From an uncultured Vicinamibacteraceae bacterium (GTDB lineage: Bacteria > Acidobacteriota > Vicinamibacteria > Vicinamibacterales > JAFNAJ01): DNA of 64,000 bases. Within the stretch, counting starts at the first letter, position 1; the number at the start of each line of letters is the position of its first letter. The notes under the pieces were generated by a model. It was given only the letters and a program-made list of their open reading frames with translations, was not told where the DNA came from and did not search any database. This document shows, in pieces, positions 2,799 through 40,352 of this stretch. Both the position numbers and the translations under genes were made by a program. The stretch covers positions 18,976 to 82,975 of the forward strand of contig CAYLZN010000001.1 in NCBI GenBank assembly GCA_964387935.1, read 5' to 3'.

Positions 2799-6185
<3,387 letters not shown>

Positions 6186-30692: not shown

Positions 30693-31160
30693 TCAGTTCG
30701 TGTCCGACGCCGGAGGTTCGAGGCGCCAGCACTCGAGCCAGTGCCCCTCGCCTCCGGGTTCGAGCGCCACGAGGCCGTGCGGCGGCCACGCCAGCGGCGT
30801 CTCCTCGTCGCCCGTCACGAGTCGCCGCATGATTCTGGCGATGTTCGGCAGGTGCCCGACACACATGACGTCGCGGGTCGAGCCCGTCACGCGATCGCAG
30901 ATCCACTCGGCAGGGTCCGACGGCTGCAGGCCTCGCATAGCGGAGAACTCCGCGAAGGGATTGCAGGCCCGCCAAAAGGTCTCTGCCGTCTGCCGGGCCC
31001 GGAGTTTGCCGCTGTGCCAGATCACCTCCGGCCTGACGCCACGCGCCGCAGCCTCCGCGGCCAGCGCCGCCGCCGCACGACGCCCGTGCTCCGACAGCGG
31101 CCGCTGAGCATCGAGGTCCGGCGACAGGGCGTCGCCGTGGTGCACGAGGTAGAGCGTCAC
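30693..31160 (-). CDS. Histidine-phosphatase superfamily protein (SixA-like phosphohistidine phosphatase)
   Basis: GTG 31160 gives VTLYLVHHGDALS...RPLSEHGRRAA..., and VGHLPN near the C-terminus. Note HHG instead of the canonical RHG. The start overlaps the upstream stop (GTGA). Confidence 0.7.
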   Translation of the reverse strand: MTLYLVHHGDALSPDLDAQRPLSEHGRRAAAALAAEAAARGVRPEVIWHSGKLRARQTAETFWRACNPFAEFSAMRGLQPSDPAEWICDRVTGSTRDVMCVGHLPNIARIMRRLVTGDEETPLAWPPHGLVALEPGGEGHWLECWRLEPPASDTN

Positions 31161-31519
31161 TTCGCCAGCTTGACGTTGGTGACCGTGATGCTCTTCTTGC
31201 CGTCCTCCTCGGTCACCTCCCCGGTGGCACTGACCTGCTTCGACAGCAGCCCGAAGAGCTTCGCGTTGTTGTTGCCCGTGAACTTGCCAGCAATGCGGTA
31301 GACGCCGTCCTCCGCAAGCAGGCCCATCGCCCCGCCCTGCTTGGAAGACGTCAGCGTGCAGGCCTTGTACTCGTCGCCCGTCGTCTTGCTGCCGTTTTTC
31401 GCATAGCAGTCGAGATCGATCACCTCGCCGGTCACCATCTTCACCTCGCCGGCGAGGACCGGAGCGCCGCACGCCAGCACGAGGCCGGCCAGCGCGACGG
31501 CTGCAAACGCCCGTTTCAT
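31157..31519 (-). CDS. Small secreted hypothetical protein (120 aa)
   Basis: ATG 31519 after AAGGGGG. Signal MKRAFAAVALAGLVLACGAPVLAGE. Lys/Thr-rich mature part. Confidence 0.6.
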   Translation of the reverse strand: MKRAFAAVALAGLVLACGAPVLAGEVKMVTGEVIDLDCYAKNGSKTTGDEYKACTLTSSKQGGAMGLLAEDGVYRIAGKFTGNNNAKLFGLLSKQVSATGEVTEEDGKKSITVTNVKLAK

Positions 31520-31641
31520 GGAAACCCCCTTCATGGTGTAAATCAAAATCGGCACGCGGCCCGCTCGAGTCGAGCCCGGGTCCCGTGCGCGAGCGGTAGA
31601 GTTTCAGTCTACCCTAGAGGCCGAGCCCGCTGATCCCCGCC

Positions 31642-32232
31642 ATGTCTGCGATCGCCGTGCCGCACGCCCCCCTGGTCCGAGTCGTGGTCTTCGCATTGCC
31701 GCTGTTCGCAGGGTGTGCGCGTTCCGCACAGCCGACGGCCATCGACCTCGGGGCCACACTGCCGCTCACCGGTGCGACGGCACTCGCCGACGCGTGGCGG
31801 CGCGGCTACGAACGCGCGGTGGCTGAGACCAATGCGGGCGGTGGCCTCGTGCTCGCCGACGGCACGCGCCTGCCGGTGCGTCTCACGATCGTGGACGATT
31901 TCAACGAGATGCCGGGGGTGGAACGCGAGGCAGAGGCCCTGTTCCGGCAAGGCGTCCAGGCGATGCTGGCCACGCCTGGCCCGCTCCGCATGGCCGCCCA
32001 GGCCGCCGTCGCCCAGCGTCATCGGCGCCCCTATGTGGTGCCCCGTGTCGCCGGCGAGGACCTGAAGGCGTCCGATCACCCCTGGGTGCTCGTCGCGCCG
32101 ACCGCGGGTGACGACGACGCCGCGCACGCGTACTATGCGGCGCGGGCCCTCCTGGAGGCCTTCGCGCGCGCGCCGACGCTCGACGCGGAAGCCGTGCGGC
32201 GCGCGTTCGAGGCGACGTGGGTCACGCGTTGA
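31642..32232 (+). CDS. Truncated periplasmic-binding-protein type I (LivK-like) lipoprotein, 196 aa
   Basis: Lipobox LFAGC. IDLGATLPLTGATALADAWRRGYERAVAETNAGGGLVL matches the branched-chain amino-acid binding protein N-terminus, but the protein is about half the normal length. Confidence 0.55.
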   Translation: MSAIAVPHAPLVRVVVFALPLFAGCARSAQPTAIDLGATLPLTGATALADAWRRGYERAVAETNAGGGLVLADGTRLPVRLTIVDDFNEMPGVEREAEALFRQGVQAMLATPGPLRMAAQAAVAQRHRRPYVVPRVAGEDLKASDHPWVLVAPTAGDDDAAHAYYAARALLEAFARAPTLDAEAVRRAFEATWVTR

Positions 32233-32258
32233 CAGCCTCCGTGCGCGTGACTTACCCT
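32229..32258 (+). promoter_or_regulatory. Candidate his promoter: TTGACA-N18-TACCCT
   Basis: TTGACA at 32229-32234 and TACCCT at 32253-32258. The leader ATG lies 9 nt further on, with no SD. Confidence 0.45.
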
Positions 32259-32267
32259 AACCGGGTC

Positions 32268-32342
32268 ATGTTCCAGTCTGTTCATCATCACGCGCACCAC
32301 CATGGCTGCCTCAGTGGCAGGCCGGCCGAGGTTCGCGCCTGA
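32268..32342 (+). promoter_or_regulatory. hisL: his operon leader peptide ORF (24 codons, 6 His in 7 consecutive codons)
   Basis: ATG TTC CAG TCT GTT CAT CAT CAC GCG CAC CAC CAT GGC ... TGA = MFQSVHHHAHHHGCLSGRPAEVRA. Confidence 0.75.
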
Positions 32343-32372
32343 TGTAGCGGAACGACAGGTTCTCATCACGCG

Positions 32373-32405
32373 GCCCCGCCGGCACCCGGCGGGGCTTTTT
32401 TGTTT
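32373..32405 (+). terminator. Intrinsic terminator of the his attenuator
   Basis: GCCCCGCCGG-CAC-CCGGCGGGGC (10-bp perfect stem) followed by TTTTTTGTTT, 18 nt upstream of the hisI ATG. Confidence 0.85.
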
Positions 32406-32422
32406 CTGGGGCAGCGACGCGC

Positions 32423-32737
32423 ATGGACTTCTCGAAACTCGATGGACTGATCCCGGCGGTGATCCAGGACGCGACCACCCGCGAGGTGCTCATGGTGGGG
32501 TTCATGAATCAGGAGGCCCTGGCGAGGACCCGCGAGACCGGCTTTGCGACGTTCTACAGCCGCACGCGCCAGACGCTCTGGATGAAGGGGGAAACGTCCG
32601 GCAACCGCCTCGCGGTCGAACGCATCCTCGTGGATTGCGACGACGACACGCTGCTGCTGCTCGTGCGCTGCGAGGGAAATGGCCTGGTCTGCCACACCGG
32701 CGAACGATCGTGTTTCTTCCGGGACTTCGAGGCGTAG
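32423..32737 (+). CDS. hisI: Phosphoribosyl-AMP cyclohydrolase (monofunctional)
   Basis: 104 aa. [59 protein letters not shown]. Confidence 0.9.
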
Positions 32738-32740
32738 GGG

Positions 32741-33634
32741 ATGGCGATGACGCTGAAGCTGGGACTGCCGAAAGGATCGCTCCAGGACGCGACGATCCAG
32801 TTGTTCGCCCGTGCGGGTTTCAACATCTATGCGAACGCGCGCTCGTACTTCCCGTCGATCGACGATCCGGAGGTCGAGTGCATGCTCATCCGGGCCCAGG
32901 AGATGGCTCGCTACGTCAAGGACGGCGTGCTCGATGCCGGACTCACGGGTTACGACTGGATCCAGGAGCAACAGCTCGCCAACGGCGGAGGGCATGCCCT
33001 GAGGTCGGTATGCGAGCTCGTGTACGCCAAGCAGAGCTTCGGCAAGGTGCGGTGGGTGCTGGCGGTCCCCGAGGACTCGCGGTTCAGGACGCCACAGGAT
33101 CTCGAGGGCGCGACCATCGCGACCGAACTCGTGCGGGTGACGCAGGACTACTTCGCGCGGCTCGGCGTCTCCGTTCAGGTCGAGTTCTCCTGGGGCGCCA
33201 CCGAGGTGAAGCCGCCCGTGCTGGCCGACGCCATCGTCGAGGCCACGGAAACGGGCTCGACCCTGCGGGCGAACCGGCTGCGTGTGCTCGACACGGTGCT
33301 CGAGTCCACCACGCAGTTCGTCGCCAACGAGCCGGCCTGGCGCGATACGTGGAAGCGGACGAAGATCGAGAACATCGCGCTGCTGCTGCAGGCGGCCATC
33401 CAGGCGCAGGGACGCGTGGGGCTCATGCTCAACGTGCGGCGCGCGAACCTGCCCGCCATTCTCGATCAGCTCCCCGCGCTGCGCCGCCCGACGATTTCCG
33501 CGCTGAGCGACGAGGAGTGGGTGGCGCTGAACACGATCGTCGAGGAGCGTACCGTGCGGGAGCTCATTCCGCGCCTGAAGGCGGCGGGGGCCGAGGGCAT
33601 CGTGGAGTATCCGTTGAACAAGATCGTGCTCTGA
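32741..33634 (+). CDS. hisG: ATP phosphoribosyltransferase, long form
   Basis: 297 aa. [49 protein letters not shown]. Confidence 0.9.
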
Positions 33635-33642
33635 GGGCGCCC

Positions 33643-34881
33643 ATGTTCCGCATCATCAGTGCCGCCGACTCCCGCAGCCTCGGACGCCTGCTCGATCGCC
33701 ACCCGTCGCGCGATCCGGCGCTCGAGCGCCGCGTGGCGGCGATCGTCGCGGACGTGCGCCGCGGGGGCGACAAGGCCGTCGTCGCCTACGCCCGCCGCTT
33801 CGACGGCCTCGACGGCCCGGTCGAGGTCACCGCGAAGGAGATTGCCGCGGGGGCCCGTGCCACGCCGGCCGTGGTCCGGCGTGCCCTCGCCACGGCAGCC
33901 CGCCACATTCGCTCCGTCGCGCGCCAGCAGGTCCCGAAATCGAGCCGCATGACCGTGATGCCAGGCGTGGTGGTCGAGCAGCGCGTCACGCCGCTCGATC
34001 GCGTCGGCTGCTACGTGCCCGGCGGTCGGTATCCGCTGCCGTCTTCCCTGCTCATGACGGCGGTCCCTGCACGCGTCGCCGGGGTCACCGAGGTCGTGGC
34101 CGTGTGCCCGCGGCCGGATCCCGTGGTTCTCGCCGCAGCGGCGGAGGCCGGCGTGGATCGCCTGTTCCGACTCGGCGGCGCGCATGCGGTGGCCGCGCTG
34201 GCCTACGGAACCGCCGCGGTGCCGCGCGTGGACAAGATCGTCGGCCCCGGCAACGCATACGTGGCCGCGGCCAAGGCTCTGGTCTCGGCCGACTGTGCCA
34301 TCGACTTCCACGCCGGACCGAGCGAGATCGTCGTCATTGCCAGCCAGGGGCCGGCCAGCTGGGTGGCGGCCGACCTCATCGCGCAGGCCGAGCACGACCC
34401 GCAGGCCCGCGCGATCCTGCTGACCTGGAGCAGGCGCTTCGCCAACCAGGTACACCGCGAGGTCGAGGCGCAGGCGCCGGCGGACGGGCCCGCGCGCGCG
34501 GCCCTGGCCGCCAACGGTGGCATCGTCCTCACCAGGAACCGGGCCGAGGCCATCGCGATCGCCAACCGCCTCGCCCCGGAGCACCTCGTGTGCGAGGACG
34601 CACGCGTCGCCGAGGACGTGACGTGCGCCGGGGCGACGTTCGTCGGGGCCTGGACGGCCCAGGCCACGGGCGACTACGCGACCGGCTCGAACCATGTGCT
34701 GCCCACCAACGGCGCGGCGAGGTTCCGCGGCGGCCTGAGCGCTGCGGACTTCGTGCGCGTCCGATCGGTGCAGCGCCTGACGAAGGCTGGCCTCGTCCGC
34801 ATCGCCCCCACGGCGCTCGCGCTGGCGGAGGCCGAGGGGCTGGCCGCGCACGTGCAGTCCATCCGGGTGCGCCTGTCATGA
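33643..34881 (+). CDS. hisD: Histidinol dehydrogenase
   Basis: ATG 33643 (track ORF 32302.. is a false extension). [49 protein letters not shown]. Confidence 0.9.
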
Positions 34882-35924
34882 GTTTCGAGTACGAGCGACT
34901 GCCCGACCCCGGCGAGGGCCTGCGCCTTCACCTGAACGAGAACACCGCCGGCTGTTCGCCCCGCGTGCTGGACGCGCTGGCGCGCCTGACGCGCGAAGAC
35001 TGCGCGTTCTACCCGGACTACACGGATGTCACACGCCGGGTGGCCCACTCGCTCGGCGTCGATGCCGAGTGGACCCTGCTCCTCAACGGGCTCGACGAGG
35101 GCCTGCACCTGGCCGCGCTCTGCACCCTGCCTCGCGGCCCCTCCGGCGAACAGCACGAGGCCATCGTCGTCGAGCCGGCCTTCGACATGTACGCGGCGTG
35201 CGCGGACGCGGCCGGGGGCCGCGTGGTGACCGTCGCGCCTCGCGCGGACTTCTCCTTCCCGCTCGACGAGGTCCTGGCGGCCATCACGCCGCGCACGCGG
35301 CTCGTCTACCTGACGAGTCCCAACAACCCCACGGGCCTGACGATTCCTCGGGACATGGTGGCGGCGGTGGCGCGTCGCCTGCCCGGCGATGCGCTCGTGC
35401 TGCTCGACGAGGCTTACGTGGAGTTCGCGCGCGAACAAGCCCCGGACCTGCTGCCCTCGACGCCGAATCTCGTGATCGGCCGCACCTTCGCGAAGGCCCA
35501 GGGGCTGGCGGCCGTGCGCGCCGGCGCCGCGGTGGCCCAGCCAGCGGTGATCCGCCGGCTGCGCCGGATCGCCCCTCCCTACAGCGTCAACGTATTCGCG
35601 GCAACGGCCATCGTCGCGGCGCTCGAGGACCACGAGTACCTCGCCTGGTATCGCGATCAGGTCGCACGGTCGCGGGAACTCGTCTACGACTGCTGCAGGC
35701 GCCTGCAGCTCGACTACTGGCCGAGCGAGGCGAACTTCGTGCTCGTTCGTGTGGGAGCTGGCGCGGCCGAACTCGTGCGGGCCCTGGCCCGACGTCGCAT
35801 CTTCATCCGGGATCGCACGACCCAGCCCGGCTGCGCCGGCTGCGTGCGGATCACGGCCGGCGTCGTGGAGCACACCGCGCGCTGCGTGGCGGCGATCGAG
35901 GAGGTCCTGTGCGGCAAGCCGTGA
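34878..35924 (+). CDS. hisC: Histidinol-phosphate aminotransferase
   Basis: ATG overlaps the hisD stop (ATGA). [41 protein letters not shown] (PLP Lys). Confidence 0.88.
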
Positions 35925-36496
35925 TCGAGCGCAAGACCCGTGAGACGCAGATCCACGTCCGCCTCCGCCTCGAGGGCAAAGGGCGGTACGAGGTCGCGAC
36001 CGGCATCCGGTTCTTCGACCACATGCTGGAGCTGATGACACGCCATGGCGCGTTCGACCTCACGCTGAGGGCTGACGGCGACCTGGATGTCGACCAGCAC
36101 CACACCGTCGAGGACGTGGGCATCGCGCTCGGCGAGACCGTGTCGAAGGCGCTCGGCGATCGGCGCGGCATCCACCGTGCCGGCTACTTCGTGATGCCGA
36201 TGGACGAAACGCTCGCGGTGGCCGCCATCGACCTCGGCGGGCGTCCTCACGCGGTCGTGTCGCACGGCGTGCGGGTGCGCCTCGTCGGGGACCTGCAGTC
36301 GGAACTGGTGCACGACTTCTTCGAGGGGTTCTCCGTCGGCGCGCGGGCGAACGTGCACGTGAAGGTCCTGTACGGCCGCTCGAGCCACCACCGGGTCGAA
36401 GCGTGCTTCAAGGCGTTCGGGCGGGCGCTGCGGGTCGCGTGCTCGCGCGACCGGCAGCTCGGACGCATGTTGCCCTCCACCAAAGGACTCCTGTAG
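35909..36496 (+). CDS. hisB: Imidazoleglycerol-phosphate dehydratase
   Basis: GTG 35909, 5 nt after GAGGAGG (GTG 35921 also possible). [50 protein letters not shown]. Confidence 0.88.
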
Positions 36497-36500
36497 GGCG

Positions 36501-37109
36501 ATGCTGGCGCTGCTCGACTACGACGCGGGCAACCTCGCTTCCGTGCGGAAGGCACTGGCCTTCGTCGGGGCGGAGATGTTCACGCCCGCCGGACCGGAGG
36601 CGTTGTCGCGGGCGTCCGGCATCGTCGTGCCGGGCGTGGGTCACTTCGAGGCCACGGTCGTACTCGACGCCGGCTGGCGCGAGGCCGTTCGCGCCGCAGT
36701 TTCCGCGGGCACGCCGCTGCTCGGCATCTGTCTGGGCCTGCAATGGCTGTTCGAGGGCAGCGAGGAGGCGCCCGGCCAGCCGGGCCTCGGCCTCCTGCCC
36801 GGCCGATGCTCACTGCTGAAGGCGGGCCCAGGCCTCAAGGTGCCGCACGTCGGGTGGAACGCCCTGTCGATCCGCCGCCCGTCCCGGCTGCTCGAGCAGG
36901 TGGACGATGGCGCCCAGGCCTACTTCACGCACTCGTTCGTGGCGCCGGTGACCGACGCGTGCGTCGCGACGACGACCCACGGCGTGCCGTTCGCCAGCGT
37001 TGTCGAGCGGGGCGTCGTGTTCGGTGCCCAGTGCCATCCCGAGAAGTCGGGGACCGTCGGGCTCACGCTGCTTCGGAACTTCCTGGCCGTCGTGCGCGGG
37101 AGAGGATGA
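36501..37109 (+). CDS. hisH: Imidazole glycerol phosphate synthase, glutamine amidotransferase subunit
   Basis: LLDYDAGNLASV, GICLGLQWLFE (Cys nucleophile), GAQCHPEKS. Confidence 0.9.
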   Translation: MLALLDYDAGNLASVRKALAFVGAEMFTPAGPEALSRASGIVVPGVGHFEATVVLDAGWREAVRAAVSAGTPLLGICLGLQWLFEGSEEAPGQPGLGLLPGRCSLLKAGPGLKVPHVGWNALSIRRPSRLLEQVDDGAQAYFTHSFVAPVTDACVATTTHGVPFASVVERGVVFGAQCHPEKSGTVGLTLLRNFLAVVRGRG

Positions 37110-37894
37110 CGGCGATGCTGGCAAAACGCATCATCGCATGCCTGGACATCAGGGACGGCCAGGTCGTGAAAGGCGTCCAGTTCGGGGGACTTCGGGCCGC
37201 CGGCGACCCGGCGGCGCTCGCGCGGCGGTACAACGTCGAGGGCATCGACGAGCTCGTGATCCTCGACGTCACCGCGACGCTCGAGGCCCGCCGTGCGCTG
37301 CGACACACCATCGAGGCCGTCGCGCGCGAGCTGTTCATCCCGCTGACGGTCGGTGGCGGGATTCGTCACGAGGACGATGCGGCGGTTGTCGTCGAGGCCG
37401 GCGCCGACAAGGTGAGCATCAACTCGGCCCCGCTGAACGAGCCGGCCCTGATCACGCGGCTCGCCCGCCGGTACGGCAGCCAGGCGATCGTGGTGGCCAT
37501 CGACGCCAGGCGCGAGCACGAGCGGTTCGCGGTGTACGCGCGGAGTGCGACGGCCGCCGCGGCGCGCGATGCCGTCGAGTGGGCGCGTGAGGCTGCCGAT
37601 CGGGGCGCTGGCGAGATCCTGCTCACCTCCATCGATCGGGATGGGACGCGGAACGGGTTCGACTGCGAGCTGACAGCCGCCGTCTCGGACGCCGTCAACA
37701 TCCCGGTGATCGCCTCGGGCGGCGCCGGAGGCTTCGAGCACTTCGCCGAGGTGTTCACCGCCGGTCGCGCCGACGCGGCCCTGGCGGCGTCGATCTTCCA
37801 TTTCGCCGAGCACGCCGTGGCGGACCTGAAGCAGTTCCTCGCGGCGCGCGGCATCCCGATCCGACTCGTCGCGTCGACCGGTGCCGCATGCTGA
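37106..37894 (+). CDS. hisF: Imidazole glycerol phosphate synthase, cyclase subunit
   Basis: ATG overlaps the hisH stop (ATGA). [50 protein letters not shown]. Confidence 0.9.
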
Positions 37895-38577
37895 TTCCCT
37901 CCATTGACCTGAAGGACGGCCAGGTCGTCCAGCTCCGGCAGGGCCGCGACCTCGCCCTCGCGTCCGACGACGTGTTCGCGTGGGTCCGTCGATTCGAGGG
38001 GTTCGCGAAGGTGCAGTTGATCGATCTCGACGGCGCGTTCGGCACCGGCGTGAACGACTTCCTCGTGCGCCGGGTCTGCCGGGCGCTGCCCTGCCGGGTG
38101 GGCGGCGGGATCCGGACGATCGCGCGGGCCCGTGAGGTGCTGGCGGCGGGCGCGCGGGCCGTGATCGTTGGCTCGTCGCTGTTCCGGGACGGCCAGCCGG
38201 ATCTGGACTTCGCGACCCGCCTCGCCGAGGGCGTCGGCGTGGACCGGGTGATTGCCGCCGTGGACAGCCTGGAGGGGCACGTGGTCGTCAAGGGCTGGCG
38301 CGAGTCCACGGGGCTGTCCACGGTGGAGGCCGTACAGGCGCTCGAGCCCTTCTGCGACGAGTTCCTCTACACGCATGTGGACCGGGAGGGGCTGATGCAG
38401 GGCACCGACCTGGCGGCCATCCGCGCCGTCCGCGAGGCGACGTCCCGACGGGTCACGGCGGCCGGCGGCATCACCACGCAGGCCGAGATCGACGCGCTCG
38501 AGGCCATGGGCGTCGATGCGGTCGTCGGCATGGCCATCTACACGGGGGCCCTCGCCTTCAGGCCGCCCCAGTCGTGA
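37888..38577 (+). CDS. hisA: HisA-type ProFAR isomerase (TIM barrel)
   Basis: 229 aa. [52 protein letters not shown]. Overlaps the hisF end by 7 nt. Confidence 0.8.
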
Positions 38578-38696: not shown

Positions 38697-39842
38697 ATGA
38701 ATCCCTTCGTCTACGGCGAAGTCGTGCCGGCCGACGCGTTCACCGACCGCGAGGCGGAACTGGATCGCCTGGTGGCCGACCTCGAGGCCGGCCAGAAGGT
38801 CTTCCTCATTTCTCCGCGCCGGTTCGGCAAGTCGTCGCTCGTGCGCCGCGCGCTGCACGTGCTCGCGCGCCGACACGTGCGCGGCGTCGAGCTCACGGTC
38901 AGCAGCTACAGCTCGTACGTCGCGTTCCTCGAAGGCTTCACGCGGGCGCTGGTGGCGCTCGAGCGCGAGGTGGACGCCGCGCGGTCCTGGATCGAGCGGC
39001 TGCTCGGCCCCGTGCACCCCGAACTCCGCCCGCGCCCGTCCGGCGAGGGGACGCTTGCGCTCGACGTGGCCTTCCCGCGTGCCCGCAGCGCACGCGACAT
39101 CGCGCGCCTCGCCGACGAGGTGTTCGCCCTGCCGGGGCGGCTCGCGGACATGAAGAACCGCCCCCTCGTGGTCGCGCTCGACGAGTTCCAGGACATCGCG
39201 CGCTTCAACGGCGGCAGCGTCGAACAGGCCCTCCGGGCCGCCGTGCAGCACCAGCGGCGTGTGGGGTACGTCTTCGCAGGTTCCGAACCCACGTTGATGG
39301 AGCAGATGATCAGTCCGCGGCGGCCGTTCTACAAGGCCGGCCCCGTGCTCCGGCTCGGGCGCATCCCCGCGGACCAGTTCGGCCGCTTCCTCGACGCGCG
39401 CTTCAGGCGCAGCGGCCTCGCCCCGGCGCCCGGCCTGGGCGCGGCGATCGTCGATCTCGCGGGCAACCTGCCGTACGACGTGCAGCGGCTCGCGCACGAG
39501 ACGTGGGACGATGTGCGGGCCGCGCGGCGACGGAAGGTGACCGCCGACGACCTGGACACGACGCTGCATCGGCTGCTCCGCGAGCACGCCGTGTTCTTCG
39601 AGGGATCGTGGCAACGGTTGACGCTGGCCCAGCGAGCGGCGCTGCGCGCGGTGGTGCTCGAAGACGGGCGGTCGCTTCTCGCGGCCGACGCGCGCCTGCG
39701 TCACCGGCTGGGCGGCGCGTCGAGCGTGCAGGCGTCGCTCGCCGCCCTGCGTCGGGACGACCTCATCGCCCGGGACGAAACAGGGCGATACTGGGTGGTG
39801 GACTCGCTCTTCCGCGAGTGGATCGCGCGCAAGACGTTCTGA
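38697..39842 (+). CDS. Archaeal-type AAA+ ATPase (COG1672/Arch_ATPase-like) with C-terminal winged-helix-like region
   Basis: FTDREAELDRL, Walker A ISPRRFGKSSLV, Walker B VVALDEFQDI. C-terminal LRRDDLIARDETGRYWVVDSLFREWI. Confidence 0.75.
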   Translation: MNPFVYGEVVPADAFTDREAELDRLVADLEAGQKVFLISPRRFGKSSLVRRALHVLARRHVRGVELTVSSYSSYVAFLEGFTRALVALEREVDAARSWIERLLGPVHPELRPRPSGEGTLALDVAFPRARSARDIARLADEVFALPGRLADMKNRPLVVALDEFQDIARFNGGSVEQALRAAVQHQRRVGYVFAGSEPTLMEQMISPRRPFYKAGPVLRLGRIPADQFGRFLDARFRRSGLAPAPGLGAAIVDLAGNLPYDVQRLAHETWDDVRAARRRKVTADDLDTTLHRLLREHAVFFEGSWQRLTLAQRAALRAVVLEDGRSLLAADARLRHRLGGASSVQASLAALRRDDLIARDETGRYWVVDSLFREWIARKTF

Positions 39843-40305: not shown

Positions 40306-40352
40306 TTGACGACACCTGTAGTCAAGCCCTATGCTGACTACAGGTGTAGTCA
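40306..40352 (+). promoter_or_regulatory. BlaI-type operator overlapping promoter: TTGACG-N18-TATGCT with CACCTGTAGTCA-N10-TGACTACAGGTG plus a third TGTAGTCA half-site
   Basis: Perfect 12-bp inverted arms at 40313-40324 and 40335-40346, and a third copy at 40345-40352. The TGTA/TACA core is typical of BlaI/MecI boxes. 13 nt upstream of ATG 40365. Confidence 0.7.

Follow-up and report, generated by a model that had tools for sequence, protein, structure and literature searches.

A candidate histidine leader-peptide attenuator upstream of the hisIGDCBHFA operon is conserved among Acidobacteriota

In the hisL leader of Escherichia coli and Salmonella, a short open reading frame (ORF) with a run of histidine codons precedes a GC-rich terminator and a mutually exclusive antiterminator; the position of the ribosome senses charged transfer RNA for histidine (tRNA-His), and the leader thereby controls a multigene his operon. 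E. coli hisL uses a Shine-Dalgarno (SD) sequence and six pairing segments (A-F). The trpL leader of E. coli works with four segments: a stalled ribosome frees the 2:3 pairing, whereas one that has reached the stop codon masks region 2 and leaves regions 3:4 to terminate transcription. Outside the Proteobacteria, published his attenuators are lineage-specific elements in some Firmicutes (PMC9413887, PMC2965389), and almost none of the attenuators predicted in Acidobacteria by a 2010 survey had an associated function (PMC2965389). Here we describe an element in a DNA stretch of an uncultured Vicinamibacteraceae bacterium (the window, meaning the whole 64 kb analysed; 69.5% G+C), situated directly upstream of the eight-gene operon hisIGDCBHFA. 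Judged from its sequence and from modelled RNA folds, the element is very likely a ribosome-mediated leader-peptide transcription attenuator that tunes the operon to charged tRNA-His.

The components of the hisL design recur in the window (Table 1). The leader ORF is the inner part of a longer ORF (32217..32342), with its ATG at 32268 and its TGA at 32340-32342. Between this stop codon and the terminator stem lie 29-30 nt, and 17 nt separate the end of the T-tract from the hisI ATG (32423). In the terminator, G32373-G32382 pair with C32386-C32395, extended by a G32372-U32396 wobble, and TTTTTTGTTT ends at 32405. The hexamer GCCGGC is present twice, at 32321-32326 and, inside the 5' arm of the terminator, at 32378-32383. 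Directly after the His codons, GGCUGCC (32304-32310) can form a local hairpin with GGCAGGCC (32316-32323), the 5' part of which belongs to region 1. By its sequence, TTGACA-18-TACCCT is a near-consensus sigma-70-type promoter. An earlier sequence-only reading of this DNA had proposed a His-codon-sensing, ribosome-mediated attenuator ahead of the his operon; its positions for the leader, the His run, the terminator, the two GCCGGC copies and TACCCT all match the sequence, and the proposal itself found support in every computational test available. The perfect -35 hexamer TTGACA (32229-32234) was absent from that reading.

Despite the shared design, the Acidobacteriota element has no detectable homology with hisL. 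The E. coli leader ends two codons past its His run and, in the sequence analysed, has a 5' untranslated region (5'UTR) of about 46 nt, whereas the Acidobacteriota leader continues for 11-14 codons that hold regions 1 and 2. It further differs in that four regions are sufficient to describe it, in lacking an SD sequence and in preceding hisI rather than hisG as the first gene. The hisL family model RF00514 (His_leader) gave no match at E <= 10 in 31500-33000 of the window, nor at E <= 0.1 in 11 relatives, and five leader peptides had no match at E <= 10 to Pfam (including PF08047, the His_leader family of E. coli and Salmonella) or NCBIfam. No Rfam family reached its gathering score anywhere in the 64 kb; scans of the window and the 11 relatives returned only sub-threshold small RNA matches, driven by the terminator. 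A T-box leader was likewise considered and rejected, as these scans gave no T-box match. Functionally, the element is probably a His-leader attenuator like that of E. coli and Salmonella; it lies outside their sequence family.

Other described leaders resemble the element in part. It follows the same four-segment logic as E. coli trpL, including a 1:2 fold that is also predicted for the untranslated RNA of the window but is not dominant in most relatives; the codons sensed are Trp in trpL and His in the SD-less Acidobacteriota leader. The lineage-specific His-leaders of Firmicutes (the Bacillus cereus group, Peptostreptococcaceae and Erysipelotrichales, and hisS/hisZ in bacilli) are independently recognised elements of leader, terminator and antiterminator that likewise lack a match to RF00514 and were discovered by comparative analysis of the same kind (PMC9413887, PMC2965389). 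With 3-5 consecutive His codons in low-GC hosts, the Firmicutes leaders are unrelated in sequence to the Acidobacteriota element.

Within the window, the His leader stands alone. A scan of all six frames for short ORFs with a run of H, W, F, C, T, I, L, V, M, Y, K, N or Q plus a downstream terminator found only this leader, and a scan for consensus promoters with an immediate start codon returned it together with one spurious one-codon ORF at 40344. With both strands of the 64 kb considered, its terminator is the sole hairpin of -12 kcal/mol or stronger that precedes a run of at least five T. This DNA has next to no canonical intrinsic terminators; runs of at least five T number six on the plus strand and zero on the minus strand.

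Relatives were gathered with a HisI protein search, taking one genome per species; 80 hisI loci were kept of at least 579 matches. All are from Acidobacteriota genomes or metagenome-assembled genomes (MAGs) with a HisI identity of 64-81% (one label is evidently mis-binned), and their labels include Vicinamibacterales, Vicinamibacteraceae, Luteitalea, Terriglobia, Acidobacteriaceae, Candidatus Angelobacter and Bryobacterales. No more than 400 nt upstream of hisI, 77 of 81 sequences including the window have an open frame, delimited by stop codons, in which a stretch of eight codons has four His or more, and 73 sequences, again with the window, had a leader ORF with a plausible start as well as a strong hairpin and T-tract before hisI. 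The leaders of these 73 span 20-31 codons (median 24), of which 5-12 (median 7) encode His. From the start codon to the first His of the run there are 12-18 nt in 60 of the 73, from the last His to the leader stop 33-42 nt in 66, and from the stop to the terminator stem 13-50 nt throughout the family. The element invariably lies on the same strand as the his operon and directly upstream of it. The sequence-only reading had named the regions upstream of his operons in related genomes as a place to look for such conservation, and the His run, the terminator and the spacing are indeed conserved there.

A profile hidden Markov model (HMM) spanning promoter to terminator and built from the 72 relatives, with the window left out, gave one full-length nhmmer match in the window (32224-32404; 86.5 bits, E = 5e-26). 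Thus, the window element is a homologous member of an Acidobacteriota-wide family.

Two features of the leader codons fit a sensing role. CAT, the rarer His codon, accounts for 48% of the His codons in leaders, against 18% in hisI (Fisher p = 1.7e-8) and 17% in the his genes of the window. Around the leader stop, the motif GYGTGANGTAGC (window 32334-32349, aligned with loci L002-L008) is conserved but its reading frame differs among genomes: the in-frame stop is TGA for the window and L002-L004, and TAG for L005 and L008. Since the motif is read in different frames, selection there acts on the RNA and not on the peptide.

The loci that depart from the pattern are informative and do not contradict it; most of them carry degenerate versions of the element. 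L026, L027 and L005 keep the terminator but have leaders with just 3-4 scattered His codons (MTRHGHHTAQ... in L026 and L027), which possibly reflect weakened sensing. In L043 the His leader lies at about 2023 and hisI at 3001, a distance of about 980 nt, which suggests that something was inserted between leader and operon. L042 is cut by a contig end.

Folding of the window RNA yielded the alternative structures expected of an attenuator. In the minimum free energy (MFE) structure of the free leader, 32286-32320 pairs with 32321-32344 (regions 1:2), for example through CAUCA/UGAUG and GCGC/GCGC that bracket the stop codon, and the terminator forms alongside (z = -2.97 against shuffles). Because equilibrium folds could not discriminate between ribosome states, they were replaced by folds of the RNA preceding the 3' arm of the terminator (transcribed to 32386), with a stalled-ribosome mask reaching 15 nt beyond the A site. 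With the ribosome on any His codon, the MFE structure was the hairpin 32321-32383, which sequestered 91% of the terminator 5' arm. The sequence-only reading had suggested that its two GCCGGC copies pair as an antiterminator, and precisely this pairing (32321-32326 with 32378-32383) forms the outer helix of the hairpin, only with the ribosome on the His codons. With a ribosome at the stop codon, or with none, 9% of the 5' arm was occupied. As modelled, the three mask states of the window are the classical 1:2 / 2:3 / 3:4 scheme.

The same folds were computed for the whole family of 73. Mean occupancy of the terminator 5' arm was 0.70 in the stalled state, compared with 0.18 once the ribosome sits at the stop and 0.54 for shuffled region 2 (Wilcoxon p = 7e-13, 4e-9), and the stalled-state fold was 5.5 kcal/mol more stable than the shuffles (p = 7e-12). 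Duplexes between region 2 and region 3 of the same genome were more stable than cross-genome ones, their mean being reached in one of 2000 permutations. In many relatives region 2 is nearly a copy of the terminator 3' arm, as in CGGCGGGCC and CGGCGGGGC, and the post-His segment resembles the 5' arm; this likeness is what the design of an attenuator leads one to expect.

Covariation points in the same direction. The consensus that RNAalifold derived from a MAFFT alignment of the 73 sequences was the terminator, with compensatory changes on both sides at six of nine pairs; no structure besides the terminator was recovered from this alignment. When the outer helix of the window antiterminator was laid on the family in register, 72.6% of its cells were paired, against 18-49% for slid registers, and eight of its ten pairs had changed on both sides, a number attained by 4 of 500 shuffles. 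The inner helices failed to transfer to the alignment (35-45% paired), so that only the outer helix is claimed as conserved. Post-His hairpins (1:2) with differing stem sequences occur in 71 of the 73, and their stability exceeds that of shuffles by a narrow margin (-10.0 against -8.8 kcal/mol, p = 0.003); as the MAFFT alignment does not hold them in a single register, conservation of a region 1:2 hairpin is suggestive.

From these elements we infer the following course of events. Transcription from TTGACA-18-TACCCT would begin at the leader AUG or a few nucleotides before it, and the 24-codon leader would be translated without an SD sequence from a leaderless or nearly leaderless mRNA. When charged tRNA-His is plentiful, the ribosome would pass the six His codons and reach the UGA, where it would cover region 2 (32321-32344); region 3 could then pair with region 4, and the resulting terminator would stop RNA polymerase ahead of hisI. 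When charged tRNA-His is scarce, the ribosome would stall within 32283-32303 and cover region 1 only, leaving region 2 to pair with region 3 once this is transcribed; with the antiterminator 32321-32383 in place, the operon would be transcribed. In the window genome, RNA that is not translated is expected to fold its regions 1:2, for which termination is predicted.

Several observations weigh against this scheme. Equilibrium folding of the whole leader keeps the terminator under every ribosome mask, and the antiterminator appears solely under the co-transcriptional assumption that the 3' arm has not yet been made. When the same masking was applied to E. coli K-12 hisL-hisG (L081; NC_000913.3 2089800-2090600), the leader was terminated when free and antiterminated with a ribosome stalled at the fourth His, as it should be, but wrongly antiterminated with the ribosome at the stop; the mask folds are therefore only a rough guide. 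Shuffled GC-rich sequence already pairs with 54% of the terminator 5' arm. For 52 of the 73 sequences, moreover, the antiterminator is the predicted fold of RNA without translation as well, so that a 1:2 "superattenuation" state does not hold for the family in general. The covariation of the antiterminator is modest, region 3 being constrained by two partners, and the structure used in that comparison was derived from the window sequence itself. Finally, a generic terminator scan of the 3-kb region found one where 1.2 are expected in shuffles. Since the generic pattern is not rare, the weight rests on the strength of this particular hairpin and on its conservation in relatives.

The start of the leader deserves separate consideration. 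With the leaders lined up at their start codons, TTGACA and TANNNT at a spacing of 17-19 nt are already conspicuous to the eye. A TANNNT box with a -35 match of at least 4/6 at a spacing of 17-19 nt precedes 58 of the 73 leaders; under the stricter definition of TTGACA, or a 5/6 match to it, with TANNNT at 17-19 nt, 51 of the 73 qualified compared with 4 of 3700 random positions. From the end of the -10 box to the ATG or GTG there are 7-13 nt, most often 9, in the 58 leaders with a recognisable promoter, and only 4 of the 73 have an SD-like tetramer. Such a distance leaves no space for a ribosome-binding site between the -10 box and the start codon and points to SD-independent, 5'-end-dependent translation of the leader. 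The leader is probably leaderless or preceded by a 5'UTR of at most 4 nt.

The sequence-only reading had suggested a leaderless mRNA, and it stands as far as the missing SD sequence and the promoter distance are concerned. A start exactly at the ATG fares less well. In documented leaderless genes of Streptomyces the start codon follows TANNNT after 6-7 nt (PMC3160421, Table 1), so that for a 9-nt gap a 5'UTR of about 0-4 nt is a safer statement than strict leaderlessness. The same attenuator might have a transcript that begins 2-4 nt ahead of the AUG, at the predicted promoter, or one from a farther promoter, and initiate translation independently of an SD sequence behind a 5'UTR. This arrangement is a real possibility, albeit one that we hold the less probable. 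The wide gap speaks for it, and the start-codon context, with G at -3 in 31 and C at -1 in 45 of the 73, is compatible with a start 2-3 nt upstream. The pyrimidine at -1 and purine at +1, however, fit a start exactly at the initiation codon too and may thus go with an exactly leaderless transcript; 69 of the 73 leaders have no SD-like sequence, the interval from the -10 box to the ATG has no room for a ribosome-binding site, and 5'UTRs of up to 5 nt are generally regarded as functionally leaderless. That the leader is read, throughout the whole phylum, from an mRNA that is truly leaderless or has at most 3 nt of 5'UTR strikes us as nearly an even call, tipping slightly to the negative.

The sequence-only reading had regarded a leaderless leader peptide as an unusual variant of attenuation, and here the literature disagrees. 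In Sinorhizobium meliloti the trpL leader peptide, upstream of a biosynthetic gene, is made from a leaderless mRNA whose mapped 5' end lies at its ATG (PMC7298713); that leader is Trp-specific and alphaproteobacterial, and the 5' end in Acidobacteriota is deduced from promoter geometry. The ilvBNC leader of Corynebacterium glutamicum, in a high-GC host of another phylum, senses branched-chain amino acids and is treated as leaderless (PMC11857589). Leaderless poly-Cys small ORFs of mycobacteria, which are also high-GC hosts of another phylum and use Cys instead of His, have been reported as attenuators of operonic gene expression (10.1101/834739). A leaderless leader peptide thus has precedents and introduces no new principle, and the conserved SD-less start is one moderately interesting twist.

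Should the leaderless start hold, promoter, leader ORF and terminator would constitute a single compact unit, about 180 nt long and shared by at least three lineages of Acidobacteriota, in which the ribosome must engage the 5'-terminal AUG upon its exit from RNA polymerase. This would represent an ancient way of coupling transcription to translation in attenuation without an SD sequence.

Control might instead be mainly post-transcriptional, through Rho-dependent polarity or through translational coupling or reinitiation between leader and hisI. For leader ORFs near structural genes, a role in promoting reinitiation has been suggested in several phyla, Acidobacteria among them (PMC4833913), and the leaderless Cys small ORFs of mycobacteria are reported to attenuate operonic gene expression (10.1101/834739). 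We consider this improbable for the his leader. The distance from the leader stop to hisI ranges over 64-269 nt, and that from the terminator to hisI varies freely over 2-214 nt, a lack of conserved geometry that offers nothing for sequestering a ribosome-binding site or for reinitiation and argues for transcriptional over translational control; moreover, a GC-rich hairpin with a U-tract occurs in 73 sequences and carries compensatory changes. Still less probable is a functional His-rich micropeptide (metal-binding, for example) followed by a hairpin that merely terminates its own gene or the upstream one: about 75 genomes share a conserved His-rich peptide and some terminated leader transcripts and peptides act in trans elsewhere (peTrpL/rnTrpL, PMC7298713), but the element always lies on the same strand directly upstream of the his operon, the peptide varies outside the His run with conserved nucleotides in differing frames, the upstream gene varies or is truncated, the segment between His run and terminator is complementary, in register, to the terminator 5' arm, and a terminator ahead of an eight-gene operon without a second promoter is sensible only as an attenuator.

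Ribosome-mediated attenuation of the his operon thus remains the best account of the element. It seems to be undescribed in the phylum, as the sequence-only reading had supposed: full-text literature searches, which did not cover one 2010 survey (Lopatovskaya et al.), turned up no account of a his attenuator from Acidobacteria. With a mechanism that is textbook, the conceptual advance is modest. Nevertheless, the element adds an independent lineage to the His-leader attenuators, after the gamma-proteobacteria and several Firmicutes, and thereby supports the repeated origin of such attenuators. Acidobacteriota are among the most abundant soil bacteria and their gene regulation is almost unstudied; here is a concrete, phylum-wide candidate regulatory RNA that would be easy to test. 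Rfam, Pfam and NCBIfam at present have no model that covers it; one could be added there and would mark the starts of his operons in MAGs. How attenuation is kept in synchrony when a leader has no ribosome-binding site could also be studied here in a natural example. In addition, if the terminated RNA of about 135 nt is abundant, it and the His-rich peptide could act in trans, as do rnTrpL and peTrpL of S. meliloti.

Table 1. Features of the leader and of the his operon in the window (positions count from the first nucleotide of the window)
Feature	Position	Strand	Basis and remarks
-35 hexamer TTGACA	32229-32234	+	Sequence; overlaps the TGA stop of the apparently truncated upstream binding-protein ORF
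-10 hexamer TACCCT (TANNNT class)	32253-32258	+	18 nt past the -35 hexamer, 9 nt ahead of the leader ATG
Leader peptide ORF, MFQSVHHHAHHHGCLSGRPAEVRA	32268-32342	+	24 codons plus TGA, no SD sequence; homologues in relatives
Regulatory His-codon run, CAT CAT CAC GCG CAC CAC CAT	32283-32303	+	Six His in seven codons
Region 1 (His codons and post-His segment)	32286-32320	+	MFE structure of the free leader
Region 2 (predicted antiterminator 5' strand)	32321-32344	+	Within the end of the leader ORF, stop codon included; would be masked by a ribosome at the stop
Predicted antiterminator hairpin (regions 2:3)	32321-32383	+	-32.5 kcal/mol; constrained folds with the ribosome on the His codons
Intrinsic terminator (regions 3:4)	32372-32405	+	11-bp stem with 10 G-C pairs, loop CAC, T-tract TTTTTTGTTT
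hisIGDCBHFA operon, eight genes	32423-38577	+	NCBIfam matches for all eight
hisI	32423-32737	+	NCBIfam; monofunctional HisI, 104 amino acids
hisG (long form)	32741-33634	+	NCBIfam
hisD, hisC, hisB	between hisG and hisH	+	NCBIfam
hisH	36501-37109	+	NCBIfam
hisF	between hisH and hisA	+	NCBIfam
hisA	37888-38577	+	NCBIfam

The gene cluster is without hisE, and an ORF with an AAA_16 ATPase domain follows 3' of the operon (38697-39842). No tRNA genes were found in the 64-kb window. Directly upstream of the leader, a plus-strand ORF (31642-32232) matches Peripla_BP_6 over profile positions 2-112 of 343 only, and its TGA stop falls within the -35 hexamer TTGACA of the his promoter. From its sequence, this ORF looks like a truncated remnant of a periplasmic binding protein gene that abuts the promoter. 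Farther upstream, an ORF of the histidine phosphatase superfamily occupies 30696-31472 on the minus strand. The segment 29121-30687 holds a minus-strand fragment of an IS200-like Y1 transposase (profile positions 1-50 of 121, slightly under the Pfam threshold), and beside it lie a Phd/YefM antitoxin domain and an ORF with a PIN domain, which together look like a type II toxin-antitoxin pair. Among the relatives, L062 (4239-4343) and L020 (1280-1425) contain long hairpins that match several microRNA precursor models below threshold (best E = 3.9e-5) and probably represent long inverted repeats that have nothing to do with the his leader.

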